Shown here: positions 46,788 through 55,413 of the stretch, one piece after another
How positions within the stretch are numbered: the first letter of the stretch is position 1
Layout of the letters: every line of letters begins with the position of its first letter
Source of the DNA: Waterburya sp.
Lineage (GTDB): Bacteria; Cyanobacteriota; Cyanobacteriia; Cyanobacteriales; Xenococcaceae
Direction: 5' to 3'
Assembly: GCA_965217895.1 (NCBI GenBank)
Contig: CBDCJV010000002.1
Location: forward strand, 3,936,001-4,000,000
DNA: 64,000 bases
Made by a program: the position numbers and the translations under genes
The notes under the pieces: model-generated
Told to the model about the DNA's origin: nothing
Database searches by the model: none
Seen by the model: only the letters and a program-made list of their open reading frames with translations

Positions 46788-48230
46788 GTGAAAATTCCTA
46801 TCGACCGTCAAGCAGTAAAGCCAGTCTACTTACAAATTCGCGATCGCCTTAGTCGTTTAATTAGATCGGGAACTTTTAAAACAGGCGATCGCTTGCCATC
46901 AATTCGCTCTTTGGCTAAAAATGCTCAGGTTAATAAATTAACTGTAATTGAGGCTTATAGTGTTTTAGAAGCAGACGGATTGATTCATGCTCGTCCAGGT
47001 TCAGGTTACTTTGTAAACTCAGAATCTCTAATTTCTGTTCAACCAAAATCTAATTTTGCCCCAGTTCAAGAAGTAATTATTCCGCAACAAAAAAGCATTT
47101 CTTTCTTTGATATTTATCAACTTTCCGTACAGGCAAATAATAAACCTGGAGTAATCGATTTTAGTAGTGGGTTTCCTATTTCTTCTGGTTTAAAAGATTT
47201 ACAGCGTCATGCTAGACGAGCCATGAAACAGGTAACAGAAACTTTATATAATTATGACTTTCCCCAAGGACAGCTTATTTTAAGACAGCAAATTGCCAAA
47301 ATGCTGATTCAATTGGGCTTAGAAGTTTCTGCCGATGATTTAATTATTACCAATGGCTCAAAACAAGGATTATCTTTAGTGATGAATCATTATCTTCAGG
47401 CTGGAGATTGGATAGTAACTGAAAGTCCTACTTATTACGGCACTTTGGATATTATTGAAAATATTGGCGCGAGGACTATTGGTATTCCTATGCAGGGTTC
47501 GGGAATGAACTTAGAGCTTTTAGAACAATATTTGCAGAGTCATCGCCCTAAACTAATTTACACTGTCTCGACTTTTCAAAATCCTACGGGTATTACAACT
47601 ACTCTCCAGCATCGCCAGCAATTATTGACTTTAGCCGAAAAATATGAGTGTTTGATTTTAGAAGATAATTCTTACGAAGGTTTAAACTTTGAGCCTGTAC
47701 CTCCACCAATCAAAGCTATAGATAACAGTGATTCGGTTATTTATACTGGCACGTTTTCTAAAACTTTGATGCCAGGTTTAAGAGTTGGCTATCTCTTAGC
47801 TACTGGAAAACATTATCGTCCCTTGTTAGAACAAAAGCTGTTTCACGATCTTCACGTTTCTACAGTTTCTCAGGCAATTGTCAGCGAGTATCTTGCTTCT
47901 GGGCATTATCGCCGTCATCTCAACCATCTCCAAGCTAGCAACTTGTGTAGTCGCAATGCCATGCTACAGGCGTTAGAACGTTATTTTCCTCAAGAAGCCA
48001 CCTGGACTATACCCAATGGCGGCTTATTTCTTTGGGTGCAGTTACCAGATGAAGTTTCACTAGTGACAATTGCTCGTCAAGCTTGGCAAGAAAATGTGTT
48101 TGTATGTCCTGGTATGCCGTTTTTTCCAGGACAAAAAGGTTATAACGCTCTGCGCCTCAACTTTTCCCATACCCCAGAAACAATTGAGCGGGGTATTGCG
48201 ATTTTAGGCAAGGTGCTAAAAAAATATTGA
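46788..48230 (+). CDS. GntR/MocR-family regulator (HTH + PLP aminotransferase-like domain)
   Basis: RLPSIRSLA...GSGYFV, FQNPTG and TFSKTLMPGLRVG motifs. Confidence 0.93.
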   Translation: MKIPIDRQAVKPVYLQIRDRLSRLIRSGTFKTGDRLPSIRSLAKNAQVNKLTVIEAYSVLEADGLIHARPGSGYFVNSESLISVQPKSNFAPVQEVIIPQQKSISFFDIYQLSVQANNKPGVIDFSSGFPISSGLKDLQRHARRAMKQVTETLYNYDFPQGQLILRQQIAKMLIQLGLEVSADDLIITNGSKQGLSLVMNHYLQAGDWIVTESPTYYGTLDIIENIGARTIGIPMQGSGMNLELLEQYLQSHRPKLIYTVSTFQNPTGITTTLQHRQQLLTLAEKYECLILEDNSYEGLNFEPVPPPIKAIDNSDSVIYTGTFSKTLMPGLRVGYLLATGKHYRPLLEQKLFHDLHVSTVSQAIVSEYLASGHYRRHLNHLQASNLCSRNAMLQALERYFPQEATWTIPNGGLFLWVQLPDEVSLVTIARQAWQENVFVCPGMPFFPGQKGYNALRLNFSHTPETIERGIAILGKVLKKY

Positions 48231-48253
48231 GCGCAATTTTTAAGAGATTTATA

Positions 48254-48357
48254 TATAGCAATACGAGGCTGTGTTAGGACACTCCCTGTGGAAAGTACTT
48301 CTTAGCTACCTACGAGCAATTAAATTTTCTGTCCTAACCGATTAACGTACTGCAATA
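48254..48357. repeat. MITE-like element
   Basis: Imperfect inverted ends tatagcaatacg / cgtactgcaata with inner gttaggaca / tgtcctaac. Confidence 0.6.
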
Positions 48358-48658
48358 TATCTATATGTCACTATTGTCATAAGATTGTCACACATATGAA
48401 AAAAGTATTTGATAATAGTATAAAAATAGAAGAAATACCGATGCTAATTTAGCGGACGAGCAACTCGTTCAAAAAAAGCATGAAACCTTGAATGCTAATG
48501 TTTTTAAAGGCTTATTCTGAACCAATAAAAAGATTATCAAGCTAACCAATAAATATGCTTTTTCATGGTAGATTTCACGTAGTTGTTGTGATAAATAATA
48601 ACTGTTAACACTAGTGAAAACACTGCATAGTCTTAAACATAAATTAAGGAGATAGAAA

Positions 48659-49753
48659 ATGCGAATAGTAATGCTAGGTTGTGGTGGCTTTATTGGTAGT
48701 CATCTTTTAGACAGATTGCTTGATGAAGGTGGTTTTGAAATTCATGGCTGGGATCCTAGCGATCGCAAAATTGCCAGACATTTGACAAATCCTAACTTTC
48801 ATCTACATTGCAACACAACTCATTCCCCAGGAGAGTTAGCAGAAATTGAGAGTGAAATTTCCCAAGCAGATGTTGTCTTTAACTTAGCGGCTATCTGCAA
48901 CCCAGCCGAGTATAATACTCGCCCATTAGACACAATTTATGCCAATTTATTTGATATCTATCCGATTGTAGAATTGTGCGCCAAGTACAAGAAATGGTTG
49001 ATTAGCTTTTCTACTAGTGAAGTCTACGGACGCACTTTATCTAGCTACTTACCTGGAGATAATTACAGCAACCCCGATTTTTACGAACTCCGTGAAGACG
49101 AAACACCATTGATCATGGGGCCAATTTCCAATCAGCGTTGGACTTATGCCTGTGCCAAACAAATGACCGAGCGTTTGATCTACGCCCATAATCAAGAAAG
49201 CGGTATGCCTTTTACCATCATCAGACCGCTTAACTTCTTTGGACCCAAGATGGATTACATTCCTGGTCGAGATGGTAGTGCCGATGGTGTACCTAGAGTT
49301 TTGGCTTGCTTTATGACTGCCTTGCTAGACAACAAACCAATGCAACTGGTAGATGGTGGAATCGCACAGCGGACAATCGTATCTATTCATGATGCCGTCA
49401 ATGCTATGCGCCTAATGCTTAAATTTCCAGACAAAGCTCAAAATCAAATCTTTAATATTGGCAACCGCGATAATGAAGTAAATATTGCCGAACTTGCCGA
49501 GTTGATGCGTCTTACCTACGCAAAGATTACGGGTGATTCAAGTTATAAAAATCATCCTATTGTTAATATTACCGCGAAGAAATTTTACGGTGAAGGCTAT
49601 GAAGATTGCGATCGCCGTATGCCCGATTTAAGTAAAGCACAAACATTACTGGGTTGGACTCCAAAAAGACCTCTAGAAGAAGTTTTGCTCGAAACAATGA
49701 GCTATTATCACCAAGAATACGCATCTCCAGCACTAACTTCTGTTAGTGCTTAA
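48659..49753 (+). CDS. UDP-apiose/UDP-xylose synthase-like SDR (UDP-GlcA decarboxylase family)
   Basis: GCGGFIGSH, NLAAICNPAEYNTRPLDTIY, QRWTYACAKQ, GVPRVLACF, LVDGG, NEV and FYGEGYED blocks recalled from plant AXS/UAS. RBS aggag. Confidence 0.85.
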   Translation: MRIVMLGCGGFIGSHLLDRLLDEGGFEIHGWDPSDRKIARHLTNPNFHLHCNTTHSPGELAEIESEISQADVVFNLAAICNPAEYNTRPLDTIYANLFDIYPIVELCAKYKKWLISFSTSEVYGRTLSSYLPGDNYSNPDFYELREDETPLIMGPISNQRWTYACAKQMTERLIYAHNQESGMPFTIIRPLNFFGPKMDYIPGRDGSADGVPRVLACFMTALLDNKPMQLVDGGIAQRTIVSIHDAVNAMRLMLKFPDKAQNQIFNIGNRDNEVNIAELAELMRLTYAKITGDSSYKNHPIVNITAKKFYGEGYEDCDRRMPDLSKAQTLLGWTPKRPLEEVLLETMSYYHQEYASPALTSVSA

Positions 49754-49993
49754 AAAATTAGACTTATGCATGAATAAGAAATTTTAAAATTATAGAGATT
49801 ATTATTAACAACAGTTAGGATAGCTAGAAAGTGTAATAGCAGTAAGTTTGTAGGTCAGTTATTAGCATCTGAAAACAAGTGTGCATAACGTCCGCTAGAA
49901 ACTCTATTTCTACAGTCCTAATTGTCTTAACTGTCTTAACTCTAGATATAAACTACAGATGTAATTATTCATCCTTTCAGTAATACTTGGAAA

Positions 49994-51079
49994 TTGCTAA
50001 ATGAGAGCAAAGTAAAATTGAAATATCACGTCCCACTGAGAAAATTCGATGATTTGGAACGGCAAAAGACCCAAAGCTTAGAAGCGCGATCGCAAAAATG
50101 CTCTCGTAACGATATCTGGATGCTTGGTGAAAGATTAAATGCCACTTTTTATGAACCAAAATTAGGTTCAGTTTCGTTTGGGGATCAGCTTCGAGGCAAA
50201 ATTACGGGCATACCACATTATTGGGAATATGCCCGCAAAGTAACTTCTGGACTCGGAGAAGATGATTTTATTTTTTGTGAAGGAGAAGGATTAGGAATTC
50301 CATTCGCTGCTATTGCTGCCAGTAAGAAAAATCGACCCAAAATCGCAGTCCGCTTTCACAATATTAATCGACCTCGCGGGAAATTATCCTTAAGTTTATA
50401 TCGCCTCGGCGACAAAATCGATTTATATATTGCTCATTCCCGCGCTCAACTCGATTTTTTGCGCGATTATTTACATTTACCCGAATCTAAAATTGGTTAT
50501 TTTTGGTATACAACCGATTGCCAGTTTTTTAAGCCAGGACAGCCATCTGCCAACAAAACCCGCCCCCTTATTGTCAGCGTTGGTTTAGAAAGACGAGATT
50601 ACCATCTACTAGCTGCGGCGACTGAAGATTTAGATGCTGATGTTAAGATTGCGGGTTTTTCACAATTTGCATCGGGACTGGCACGGAATTTTCCCAAAAC
50701 TATTCCTGCTAATATGTCTAATAGCTTTTATGCACTACCTGAATTGCTTCAACTTTATCACGATGCGGATCTAATCGTTGTCTGTGTCAAGCCTAGCAAT
50801 TGGTCTGCTGGCGCGACCAGCTTAGTCGAAGCAATGGCTTGTCGTAAACCAGTTGTCGTTACACGAACTGAAGGATTGAAAGAGTATTTAATGGATGCAG
50901 AGGCGATGCTCACGGTCGAACCAGGAGATGCTAAAGGTTTGCAGCAGGCGATCGTTCATTTGTTAAATAATCCCCAAGAAGCAGAGGCAAGGGCAGAAAA
51001 AGCTTACCAGCTTGCAATCAAGCGTCATCAAGTAGAACAGCAAATCGAAACTATCGCTACATTGATGGAGAACAATTGA
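49994..51079 (+). CDS. GT-B glycosyltransferase (GT4-like)
   Basis: VSVGLERRDY and GATSLVEAMACRKPVV...VEPGD motifs. TTG start uncertain. Confidence 0.88.
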   Translation: MLNESKVKLKYHVPLRKFDDLERQKTQSLEARSQKCSRNDIWMLGERLNATFYEPKLGSVSFGDQLRGKITGIPHYWEYARKVTSGLGEDDFIFCEGEGLGIPFAAIAASKKNRPKIAVRFHNINRPRGKLSLSLYRLGDKIDLYIAHSRAQLDFLRDYLHLPESKIGYFWYTTDCQFFKPGQPSANKTRPLIVSVGLERRDYHLLAAATEDLDADVKIAGFSQFASGLARNFPKTIPANMSNSFYALPELLQLYHDADLIVVCVKPSNWSAGATSLVEAMACRKPVVVTRTEGLKEYLMDAEAMLTVEPGDAKGLQQAIVHLLNNPQEAEARAEKAYQLAIKRHQVEQQIETIATLMENN

Positions 51080-51260: not shown

Positions 51261-52295
51261 TTAAAATAATTCTTCTAGAAACAATTCTATTAATTCTTGA
51301 GTAGTAACAAGAGTTTCAGTGTCCTGTGAATACAAGTCTTGAGTGCGATAACCCTGGCAGAGAATTTTATCCCTAGCCTGTTGTAAACTTTTTACCGCAG
51401 CTACTTCCTCCCATTGTTCTAACATCATCATTGCACTAGCTAAAGTACCTAAAGGATTAGCCAAATTTTTTCCTGCTATATTAGGTGCAGTGCCATGAAT
51501 CGCTTCGTACATACCAAAGCCTGACTCGTTAAGACTAGCAGAACCTAATAAACCTATTGAGCCAACTAAAGCACCACCAAGATCGCTTAAGATATCTCCA
51601 AATAAGTTACCTGCCAAAATAACATCAAAATGCTGCGGATTGACGATCAACTGCATAGCTAAGTTATCTACTAGCATTGGCTCAACAACAACATTAGGAT
51701 ATTCTTGAGCAACTTCTCCTACCAATTTTGTCCAAGGTAAATGGGGTAAGGCGTTTTCTTTATGCGCCACCGTAAGCAAGCCTCGTCTTGCTTTGGCTTT
51801 GGCTAGAGCAAGTTTAGCAATACGTTTAATCTGCCAGTCATAATACTGCATAGTGTGATAACCATAGCTACCCTGTTCATTTTTTCCTCTCCCTGATGCG
51901 CCAAAGTAAATCCCGCTAACTAACTCCCGAACAAATAAAATGTCTACTCCTGCAAGGCAATCGCTTTTTATACTAGATTTATCTAACAGACTAGGAATTA
52001 CTTTAACTGGACGCAGATTGACAAAGAAATCAAACTTCTTTCTTAGTTCTAATAATCCGCCTTTACTGACTGCACCAAAGAGAATGCCATCGGCTTGACT
52101 ACATAGCTGAGATGTTGATTCAGGGAAATACGAGCCATACCGTTGAAATGCCGATTCTCCAATTACGCCATAGTCTACTTGCAGTTTAAAATCGTGCTTT
52201 TTAGCTACCTGTTGCAAAATAGTCAGCGTGGCATCTACTACTTCTAAACCGATTCCCTCTCCTGGCAAAGCTGCAATACGATATTCTTTGGTCAT
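51261..52295 (-). CDS. Divergent beta-decarboxylating dehydrogenase (LeuB-like; possibly HphB type)
   Basis: LPGEGIG, LRKKFDFFVNLRP, RELVSGIYFG, NLFGDILSD and EAIHGTAP motifs. Confidence 0.85.
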   Translation of the reverse strand: MTKEYRIAALPGEGIGLEVVDATLTILQQVAKKHDFKLQVDYGVIGESAFQRYGSYFPESTSQLCSQADGILFGAVSKGGLLELRKKFDFFVNLRPVKVIPSLLDKSSIKSDCLAGVDILFVRELVSGIYFGASGRGKNEQGSYGYHTMQYYDWQIKRIAKLALAKAKARRGLLTVAHKENALPHLPWTKLVGEVAQEYPNVVVEPMLVDNLAMQLIVNPQHFDVILAGNLFGDILSDLGGALVGSIGLLGSASLNESGFGMYEAIHGTAPNIAGKNLANPLGTLASAMMMLEQWEEVAAVKSLQQARDKILCQGYRTQDLYSQDTETLVTTQELIELFLEELF

Positions 52296-54447: not shown

Positions 54448-55413
54448 AGACCTCTTGCATGAATCAGGCGATCGCTAAATCCAATCCACAATTATATAAA
54501 CCAGCAATAAGATTAAAGCGCAATCCAAATCGACGACAGTGATTACGATATGGCTGTGACAGAATCCGAAAAATCTTGATTGCACGAATAACGTGTTCTA
54601 CATAGATTCTCTGCCGTGCTAATTCGCGATTGTATTGCTTTTCCATTGAAGTTAACGGCTTTTTTTTTGATTTTTTAAAGGGAGTGTAACTAAGATTATG
54701 AATTTTCTTAATCCCTTGATATCCTTTATCTGCTAGGAGTTCAATTGGACTTAACAGTTTGACTCGACTTCTTTTAAATAATTGAAAGTCATGTTCTTTT
54801 CCTGTCCCATGTGCGGTACAAATGACTTGAAGACTTTGAGTATCAACTATTACCTGAGACTTGAGAGTATGTCTTTTCTTTCTTGATGCAGTCGCTCATG
54901 GGGGAAACCCCCAAGACCGCGCTGCATCGCTTTTTCCACTGTAATAACTTCTTTGTTTTTTTTAGGACGTTCAATCGGACTTTCTCCTACATCTACAATT
55001 ATCACTGACCATTCTCTTTCGGTAGATGAAAGTGCTTTTTTGCCTGGTAAACTAAATTTTCTTGATTTAATCAACTGATCTTCTACTCGATGAACTATTC
55101 TGCATACTGTTGATTCATGAACTCCCCATGACTGTCCTATGTGAAAATAAGTTCGATACTCGCGCCAGTATTGCAGGGCGATGAGCAACTGGTCTTCAGT
55201 ACTTATTTTTGGTTGACCGCCTCGTTGTTTTGACTGGGGTAACTCTTGCTTCAATACTTCCACCATCTGTTCAAACAGCTGTGGTTTAACCCCACACAAA
55301 CGTTTGAACTCTTTTGCTCTCAAATCTTTGATTTGTTCGTAGGTCATGTTTTTATTCGCGATCGCTTATATTACCTACTTTTCTCATTTTCTGAGTATTC
55401 ATGCAAGAGGTCT
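54448..55413 (-). mobile_element. IS5-family (ISL2/IS702-like) insertion sequence, transposase disrupted
   Basis: 17-bp perfect TIRs agacctcttgcatgaat/attcatgcaagaggtct with ATT on both flanks. OrfA (YWREYRTYFHI), A8 frameshift run, OrfB (HDFQLF, ADKGYQG, RIYVEH). Confidence 0.92.

Follow-up and report, generated by a model that had tools for sequence, protein, structure and literature searches.

A bacterial-clade UDP-apiose/UDP-xylose synthase and its neighbouring GT4 glycosyltransferase, a candidate apiose module in a family of cyanobacteria

Does a cyanobacterium make the activated form of the branched sugar apiose, and does the glycosyltransferase encoded beside the synthase put that sugar on a glycan? 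The question is raised by two adjoining genes in a 64,000-nucleotide stretch (the window) of the genome of a Waterburya sp., an assembly of 5.29 Mb in 2 contigs that is 99.9% complete. The first gene (48659..49753, + strand, ATG start) encodes a short-chain dehydrogenase/reductase (SDR) of the extended type, 364 aa long, and the second (49994..51079, + strand, TTG start) a GT-B glycosyltransferase (GT) of 361 aa. A sequence-only reading had described this arrangement, a stand-alone SDR with a co-oriented GT-B gene next to it, and had named the SDR a plant-type UDP-apiose/xylose synthase (UAS) rather than ArnA or a UDP-xylose synthase (UXS). Both open reading frames are as it said, and the four blocks that it quoted are all there: NLAAICNPAEYNTRPLDTIY (residues 75-94), QRWTYACAKQ (159-168), MDYIPGRDGSADGVPRVLACF (198-218) and FYGEGY (309-314). 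Our results indicate that the SDR is, by its sequence, a UDP-apiose/UDP-xylose synthase of the bacterial clade, and that the GT, a GT4-type enzyme of a cyanobacterial subfamily, is a candidate apiosyltransferase.

The distinction from ArnA and UXS was borne out. Compared with solved structures, the SDR matches Arabidopsis AXS1 best (6h0n, E 1.2e-113), and ArnA (2e-60) and human UXS (5e-22) follow at a great distance. Its scores lie under the cut-offs of the NCBIfam models for ArnA and U4kpxs (NF005998/NF008872), at 232 against 777 bits for ArnA and 258 against 294 bits for U4kpxs, as do those of the UAS of Geminicoccus roseus (ATE86748.1). With that enzyme the SDR shares 69.5% identity over 357 aa, and with the UAS of Xanthomonas pisi 62.1%; both of these bacterial enzymes have been assayed and turn UDP-glucuronic acid (UDP-GlcA) into UDP-apiose and UDP-xylose, in a ratio of about 1.7:1 for G. 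roseus (PMC5607165). The sequence-only reading had called for a phylogeny as a check, and in a 25-row maximum-likelihood tree the SDR groups with both assayed bacterial UAS in a clade with 100/99 support, apart from ArnA, U4kpxs and UXS; a 58-row quick tree agrees. The names given by JGI to the cluster mates of the SDR are 'UDP-apiose/xylose synthase', and its 90%-cluster mates bear the names Pleurocapsa and Waterburya.

The residues point the same way. Cys80 (48896..48898, + strand) aligns in 6h0n with Arabidopsis UAXS Cys100, the proton-transfer residue of ring opening, where ArnA (position 393) and UXS have Ala (PMC12820599), and it is kept in 119 of the 120 best bacterial homologues. The alignment places the catalytic YxxxK at Tyr163-Lys167 (49145..49159, + strand), the Thr/Tyr/Lys triad at T119, Y163 and K167, and the GxxGxxG motif at GCGGFIG; Thr119, Glu121, Arg160, Asn192 and Arg320 are conserved. 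The SDR has equivalents of Arabidopsis Cys100, Tyr105, Thr139, Glu141, Arg182, Tyr185, Lys189, Asn214 and Arg341, and the signature residues of UAS, ArnA and UXS are set out in Table 3 and the text of PMC12820599. The SDR shares membership of the family of SDR decarboxylases of UDP-GlcA with the C-terminal domain of ArnA, U4kpxs and UXS, but differs from them in having Cys at the diagnostic position, no formyltransferase domain and a separate UXS elsewhere in its genome. Because the SDR is 69% identical to an enzyme that has been assayed, and its active site is fully conserved, we consider it highly probable that it makes UDP-apiose. A drift of the SDR to making mainly UDP-xylose or a 4-keto-pentose could be read from Ser120 (FSTSE; 49016..49018, + strand), which stands at the position of plant Cys140 (FSTCE). 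However, both the G. roseus enzyme and that of X. pisi have the same Ser, as do 111 of the 120 best homologues, and Cys80 and all catalytic residues match those assayed enzymes. Separately, in one related protein of 746 aa (P0289) a WlaL/PglF-like dehydratase domain is naturally fused to a UAS domain, in which YACAK reads YGAAK.

If the SDR is a UAS, is it a plant-type one, as the sequence-only reading had it? This part of the reading did not hold. The SDR is nested among bacterial UAS, whereas the green plants and algae of the 25-row tree fall into a clade of their own (also 100/99). Arabidopsis AXS1/UAXS (6H0N, 6H0P), although it is the best solved match and shares the triad and the equivalents listed above, belongs to that other clade, is about 50% identical to the SDR and has Cys140 in place of its Ser. 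The plant look comes from two local features. Of 120 plant and algal sequences, 101 have the string LDTIY and 102 have a loop that is longer by two residues before GVPRV; in the SDR the loop insertion is Ser207-Ala208 (49277..49282, + strand), shared with most plant enzymes. Among 120 bacterial homologues just five have LDTIY and the longer loop, all of them within the clade of the SDR. It might be argued from this sharing with land plants that the gene is plant-derived, or that it represents a cyanobacterial (plastid) ancestor of plant AXS. We find this barely credible, and rejected it: a tree that holds the four cyanobacterial rows with the six plant rows is rejected by the approximately unbiased test (p-AU 0.0018), diagnostic sites are 64 bacterial-like against 6 plant-like, in every 30-residue segment the five bacterial enzymes compared are nearer to the SDR than the five plant ones are, and UAS was found in none of 400 other genomes of the phylum. 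Since the letters of the seven-residue loop differ between the SDR and plants, convergence is the simplest reading and, on these sequences, most likely the source of the resemblance. By this tree, plant AXS did not descend from these cyanobacterial genes.

The distribution of UAS agrees with the earlier expectation that cyanobacterial cases are rare and undescribed. A UAS match was found in nine of 61 genomes of the family, including the present one (7/39 in the genus and 2/2 in one other genus). No match came from 24 genomes of other families in the order, or from the 400 genomes drawn across the cyanobacterial phylum, for each of which five candidates were scored. There are a few further cyanobacterial UAS records (L006, L008 and the P0019 cluster), and beyond cyanobacteria UAS is scattered over many phyla. 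No description of a cyanobacterial case was found in searchable papers. In the open literature, which leaves aside subscription journals and supplements (alignments of PMC5607165, PMC6193724 and PMC3220709 may hold cyanobacterial rows), we found no report of apiose or UAS for cyanobacteria and none of a GT4 apiosyltransferase. Among the listed papers on Pleurocapsa, Chondrocystis, Waterburya or Xenococcaceae, only that on the X. pisi enzymes joins apiose to one of these names, and the word stem cyanobacteri- is absent from the accessible text of PMC5607165. How the gene came to this family can be read in two ways. In the two carriers of the other genus the identity of UAS (86-87%) is above that of a marker (61-62%), with UXS at 82-84%, which suggests horizontal arrival; repeated loss fits equally. 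A recent arrival is not shown by composition, as GC and GC3 of the two genes (0.41/0.37 and 0.42/0.33) are near the values of six window genes, and three HIP1 sites lie in the 2.4 kb of the pair, the genome-wide frequency being 1.1 per kb.

What, then, is the second gene? Its product matches Pfam PF00534 over the cut-off, and PF13692. Its structure model (pLDDT 92.9, pTM 0.90) gives Foldseek matches that are all of GT4 type, headed by GlgM, BshA, PglA, MshA and HepE (Anabaena HepE/Alr3699), at TM-scores of 0.65-0.71 and sequence identities of 14-18%. From sequence and predicted fold it is a GT4-type GT-B enzyme, and family knowledge suggests that it transfers with retention of configuration from an NDP-sugar donor. 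It has the second Glu of the E-x7-E motif, Glu279, which is invariant (116 of 116), but unlike those enzymes it lacks the first. Just before Glu279, the segment PSNWSAG (residues 267-273; 50792..50812, + strand) aligns with the PSxxE[PS]FG loop of GT4 enzymes (PSYYEPFG in a solved one), which we take to be the loop that holds the donor sugar. The subfamily is cyanobacterial, with 192 matches at E 1e-20 among 8000 candidates scored.

The sequence-only reading had named this GT as the best candidate for taking the UAS product, and it is upheld as a candidate by its association with UAS. Within the 61 family genomes the GT is present in nine of nine UAS carriers, and in eight of them it lies within ~2 kb of UAS on the same contig, five times in tandem and three times head to head. 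In the ninth (G448) the genes are on two contigs, one starting 74 bp and the other 604 bp from a contig end, and no sequence overlap joins these contigs. One head-to-head carrier has another GT4 between UAS and its partner GT (L002:4185-5219), a distant one with 28% identity to the GT of the window. The flanking genes vary: a MocR-like and a LeuB-like gene in the window, and fmt upstream with four different downstream sets in four close relatives, while fmt is 690 kb distant in the present genome. The MocR-like gene upstream and the LeuB-like gene downstream were rejected as module members, since relatives have different neighbours. Both genes of the pair are under purifying selection (dN/dS of 0.049-0.069 for UAS in four of four comparisons with other loci, and of 0.12-0.15 for the GT in two of two). 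The nine carrier GTs form one clade with 100/99 support and no non-carrier inside in a tree of 30 rows, and their branching matches that of the UAS tree (support mostly 91-97).

These observations also bear on whether the two genes belong together at all. They might be passengers, kept together by descent and without a common pathway, as the carriers form a single clade, a 240-bp gap parts the genes and there is no shared operon layout. Nevertheless, the genes have stayed adjacent through an inversion and repeated relocations, at dS values reaching ~1.5, in genomes where other neighbours were shuffled. Taken as one alternative, passenger status of the pair and the drift of the SDR considered above seem to us very improbable.

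A further clue to a functional tie lies in the loop before Glu279. The motif PS[ND]WSAG is found in nine of nine carrier GTs and in none of 28 non-carrier homologues (30 were examined, of which two could not be read by the pattern). It does not merely follow overall similarity: four homologues at 55-56% identity have it, while others at 56-57% do not. By these sequences the motif is diagnostic of the UAS-linked members of the subfamily.

Substrate supply adds a further point. A uxs-ugd pair lies elsewhere in the genome (C2:847253-849661), and its UXS matches human UXS1 at 1e-136. UXS was also found in five of five other carriers tested. The argument that a separate UXS marks apiose as the purpose of a UAS was made in PMC5607165, and the G. 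roseus genome, too, has a UXS. Following it, UAS is probably kept for apiose here too, because UXS already provides UDP-xylose.

We propose that the two genes are a module, in which UAS would make UDP-apiose (with UDP-xylose) and the adjoining GT4 would put apiose on a glycan, probably the repeat unit of an exopolysaccharide or sheath that is built elsewhere in the genome. On the sequences before us, this proposal has about an even chance of being right. Its steps would be as follows. Ugd (C2:848315-849661), whose gene was found and whose activity is predicted, would supply UDP-GlcA. UAS would oxidize C4 with its bound NAD+, open the ring by a retro-aldol reaction with the help of Cys80, decarboxylate, reclose the ring to the branched furanose and reduce it, in the order described in the accessible parts of PMC7984243 and PMC12820599. 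The GT4 would have been recruited from a cyanobacterial subfamily that is often found in polysaccharide clusters elsewhere, its donor-sugar loop changed so that it now takes UDP-apiose; this step, too, we hold to be evenly poised between right and wrong. GT4 enzymes transfer with retention at the anomeric carbon, and UDP-alpha-D-apiose would be the donor (PMC5324594), so that by analogy the product would be an alpha-linked apiofuranoside. Put in its most specific form, the idea is that a small clade of baeocyte-forming cyanobacteria installs an alpha-D-apiofuranoside on its sheath or exopolysaccharide through a re-purposed GT4, the donor having been switched in one loop (EN..AAG to PSNWSAG). 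We offer this form tentatively and regard it as possible rather than probable.

Could the GT use xylose instead? It may be an alpha-xylosyltransferase fed by UDP-xylose, the side product of UAS (or the product of UXS), with apiose minor or used elsewhere. UAS enzymes yield both sugars, as noted above for G. roseus, a xylosyltransferase is part of the X. pisi UAS operon (PMC6193724), and the presence of UXS in six of six carriers checked makes a xylose-using ancestor plausible. On the other hand, with UXS present there would be little reason to tie UAS to a xylosyltransferase, and the donor loop differs from that of UAS-free homologues in all nine carriers. We consider this possibility distinctly unlikely.

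Several observations weigh against a dedicated apiosyltransferase and should be set beside these arguments. For the enzyme, the lack of plant Cys140 means that its apiose:xylose ratio is not guaranteed. For the GT, profile and fold searches found no named NCBIfam model, no PDB sequence match better than 1e-5 and no close assayed relative or assayed subfamily member. Of the 17 family genomes with the subfamily, eight lack a detected UAS (four of the eight are <92% complete or >5% contaminated), and 21 of the 400 phylum genomes likewise have the subfamily but no UAS; because it mostly occurs without UAS, its ancestral donor would not have been apiose. The nine carriers are related to one another and their GTs belong to a single clade, so that the linkage, the matching trees and the motif count in effect as about one event in evolution. 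No such GT adjoins UAS at other cyanobacterial loci (L006, L008, L156, L157 and L166), L157 having a GT2 instead, and the GT was unmatched in five further genomes with UAS, of which two are cyanobacterial. The subfamily profile is strong in 4 of 151 UAS or UAS-like loci, all from this family, and a metagenome scan gave no locus with the GT beside UAS. In X. pisi the UAS operon includes a GT that uses UDP-xylose (PMC6193724).

Such observations leave room for a further alternative. UDP-apiose would still be the product of UAS, but what the GT4 transfers would be a different sugar of the same glycan, placed for instance onto apiose or ahead of it, and an unlinked GT would move the apiose itself. 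This would fit a subfamily that works without UAS in most genomes, the frequent absence of an adjacent GT from bacterial UAS (in the loci examined here and in the discussion of PMC5607165), the second GT4 between the genes in the L002 carrier, and changes that extend to the N-terminal acceptor-side motif (C[E]GE against C[TP]GE). Yet among the clade-specific changes that of the donor-sugar loop is the clearest, the present genome has neither a GT90 nor a second copy of the subfamily, and across rearranged neighbourhoods UAS and the GT alone remain together. We regard this alternative as unlikely, though it deserves to be taken seriously.

On which molecule would apiose be placed? For the proposed module the likeliest acceptor is the repeat unit of an exopolysaccharide or sheath, a small molecule being the less likely one. 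Among 15 loci that have the GT subfamily without UAS (48 of 86 neighbouring open reading frames were scanned), three have, beside the GT gene, a Wzx flippase that is accompanied by Wzc, Wzy or a WecG/priming GT, and four more have further GTs or sugar-nucleotide enzymes; the other eight, which count against the proposal, have no polysaccharide context. The present genome has eight Wzx-family matches, none near the pair. In G. roseus, apiose was methanol-soluble (PMC5607165). At two UAS-free loci (L095:2818-4800 and L137:4194-6593) a GH9 glycoside hydrolase with a CelD_N domain stands beside the subfamily member, once inside a Wzx cluster.

In other bacteria, UAS stands beside GT90, GT2, GT87 or no GT at all (55 of 135 listed neighbours scanned). 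At four loci (L023, L026, L027 and L039) a short GT2 lies downstream of UAS, with a GT87 in addition in two, a layout of lipid-carrier glycosylation. Three genomes of Lysobacterales type (L022, L024 and L025) have homologues of the X. pisi apiosyltransferase XpApiT, at 65-73% identity, beside UAS, so that, contrary to the accessible text of PMC6193724, the X. pisi-type operon is not exclusive to X. pisi. In two sphingomonad loci (L019:4334-8216 and L020:4281-8895) UAS has a DIT1/PvcA-family gene on one side and an asparagine-synthase-like gene on the other, a hint that a small molecule may be apiosylated there.

The layout of the pair itself is as follows. A Shine-Dalgarno-like AAGGAG (48646..48651, + strand) can be read 7 nt upstream of the UAS ATG. 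The spacer (49754..49993, + strand) is 240 bp long, and because of this gap the two genes are not coupled. It is poorly conserved except close to the GT start, and no terminator-like site was found in it, promoter and terminator scans being at chance level. Together with the head-to-head order in three carriers, the gap and these scans are what bears on a single transcript, which they neither favour nor oppose clearly. An alternative GT start is the TTG at 50018, eight codons downstream, where most homologues start.

Around the pair, the MocR-like GntR-aminotransferase regulator (46788-48230, + strand) scores slightly below the PdxR cut-off and is unlinked to the pair in relatives. The LeuB-like dehydrogenase (51261-52295, - strand) scores 323.6 against a leuB cut-off of 353.2 bits and may be a second paralogue with a different substrate. 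Between the MocR-like gene and UAS lies a short dispersed repeat (48246-48365) with 20 blastn matches in the genome, eight of them >=80 bp; it is presumably a cyanobacterial element of the type of miniature inverted-repeat transposable elements or repetitive extragenic palindromes. At the same site, two DNA-type runs of one sample, whose reads cover the stretch of the pair, have a tenfold spike of depth and many loose ends. A protein that scores above the NCBIfam cut-off for PcxA fits the cyanobacterial host, as do the HIP1 frequency and the cluster-mate names given above. Further along the window, a short open reading frame (54850-55347, - strand) resembles what we take to be the N-terminal part of an IS5-type transposase.

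How new are these two proteins? By its sequence the UAS is a new member of a published and JGI-annotated family, and a bacterial apiosyltransferase has also been published. Named relatives in culture have them too: database entries exist for the two proteins in Chondrocystis sp. NIES-4102 and for UAS in Pleurocapsa sp. FMAR1. The closest described system is the UAS of G. roseus (Smith and Bar-Peled 2017, PMC5607165), like the SDR in its active-site set and clade. The SDR differs in its cyanobacterial host, in its two plant-like local features and in an activity that is predicted from sequence; its carriers have a conserved GT4 partner, which gave no match in the Geminicoccus genome searched. 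The X. pisi operon XpUAS-XpApiT (GT90)-XpXylT (GT2) (Smith and Bar-Peled 2018, PMC6193724) likewise joins a UAS to an adjacent GT and is patchy in its lineage, but in the present case UAS is joined by one GT4, which has no relationship to GT90 or GT2, and the genes do not overlap and are head to head in three of nine carriers. A GT90 like XpApiT was rejected as the partner: PF05686 (GT90) was found neither in the present genome nor in five of five carriers tested, the present genome has no XpApiT match, and XpApiT-like proteins occur in five of the 61 family genomes, none of them UAS carriers. The closest XpApiT homologue then known was a Pleurocapsa protein (PMC6193724), and among the 61 genomes this Pleurocapsa GT90 belongs to a group confined to those without UAS. 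The reports of 2017-2018 were not followed by an identification of the bacterial apiosides concerned, and the sole bacterial apiosyltransferase has no known acceptor, as far as the accessible texts of PMC5607165 and PMC6193724 go.

In plants, GTs of other families place apiose in rhamnogalacturonan II, in apiogalacturonan and in the apiosides of flavonoids, and plant apiosides are beta-linked. UGT94AX1 and GuApiGT are reportedly plant apiosyltransferases.

Against this background, the pair described here offers a second, unrelated candidate for a bacterial apiosyltransferase, in a phylum for which the literature searched holds no report of apiose. Should the GT use some other sugar, what is left is a further member of a known and already annotated enzyme family. 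If, as we propose, the GT4 uses UDP-apiose, the anomer that it forms would be opposite to that of plant apiosides, and the subfamily would provide a natural before-and-after pair for a change of donor in a glycosyltransferase. It would then be the first retaining apiosyltransferase, and the glycan that it builds would be the first apiose glycan in cyanobacteria.

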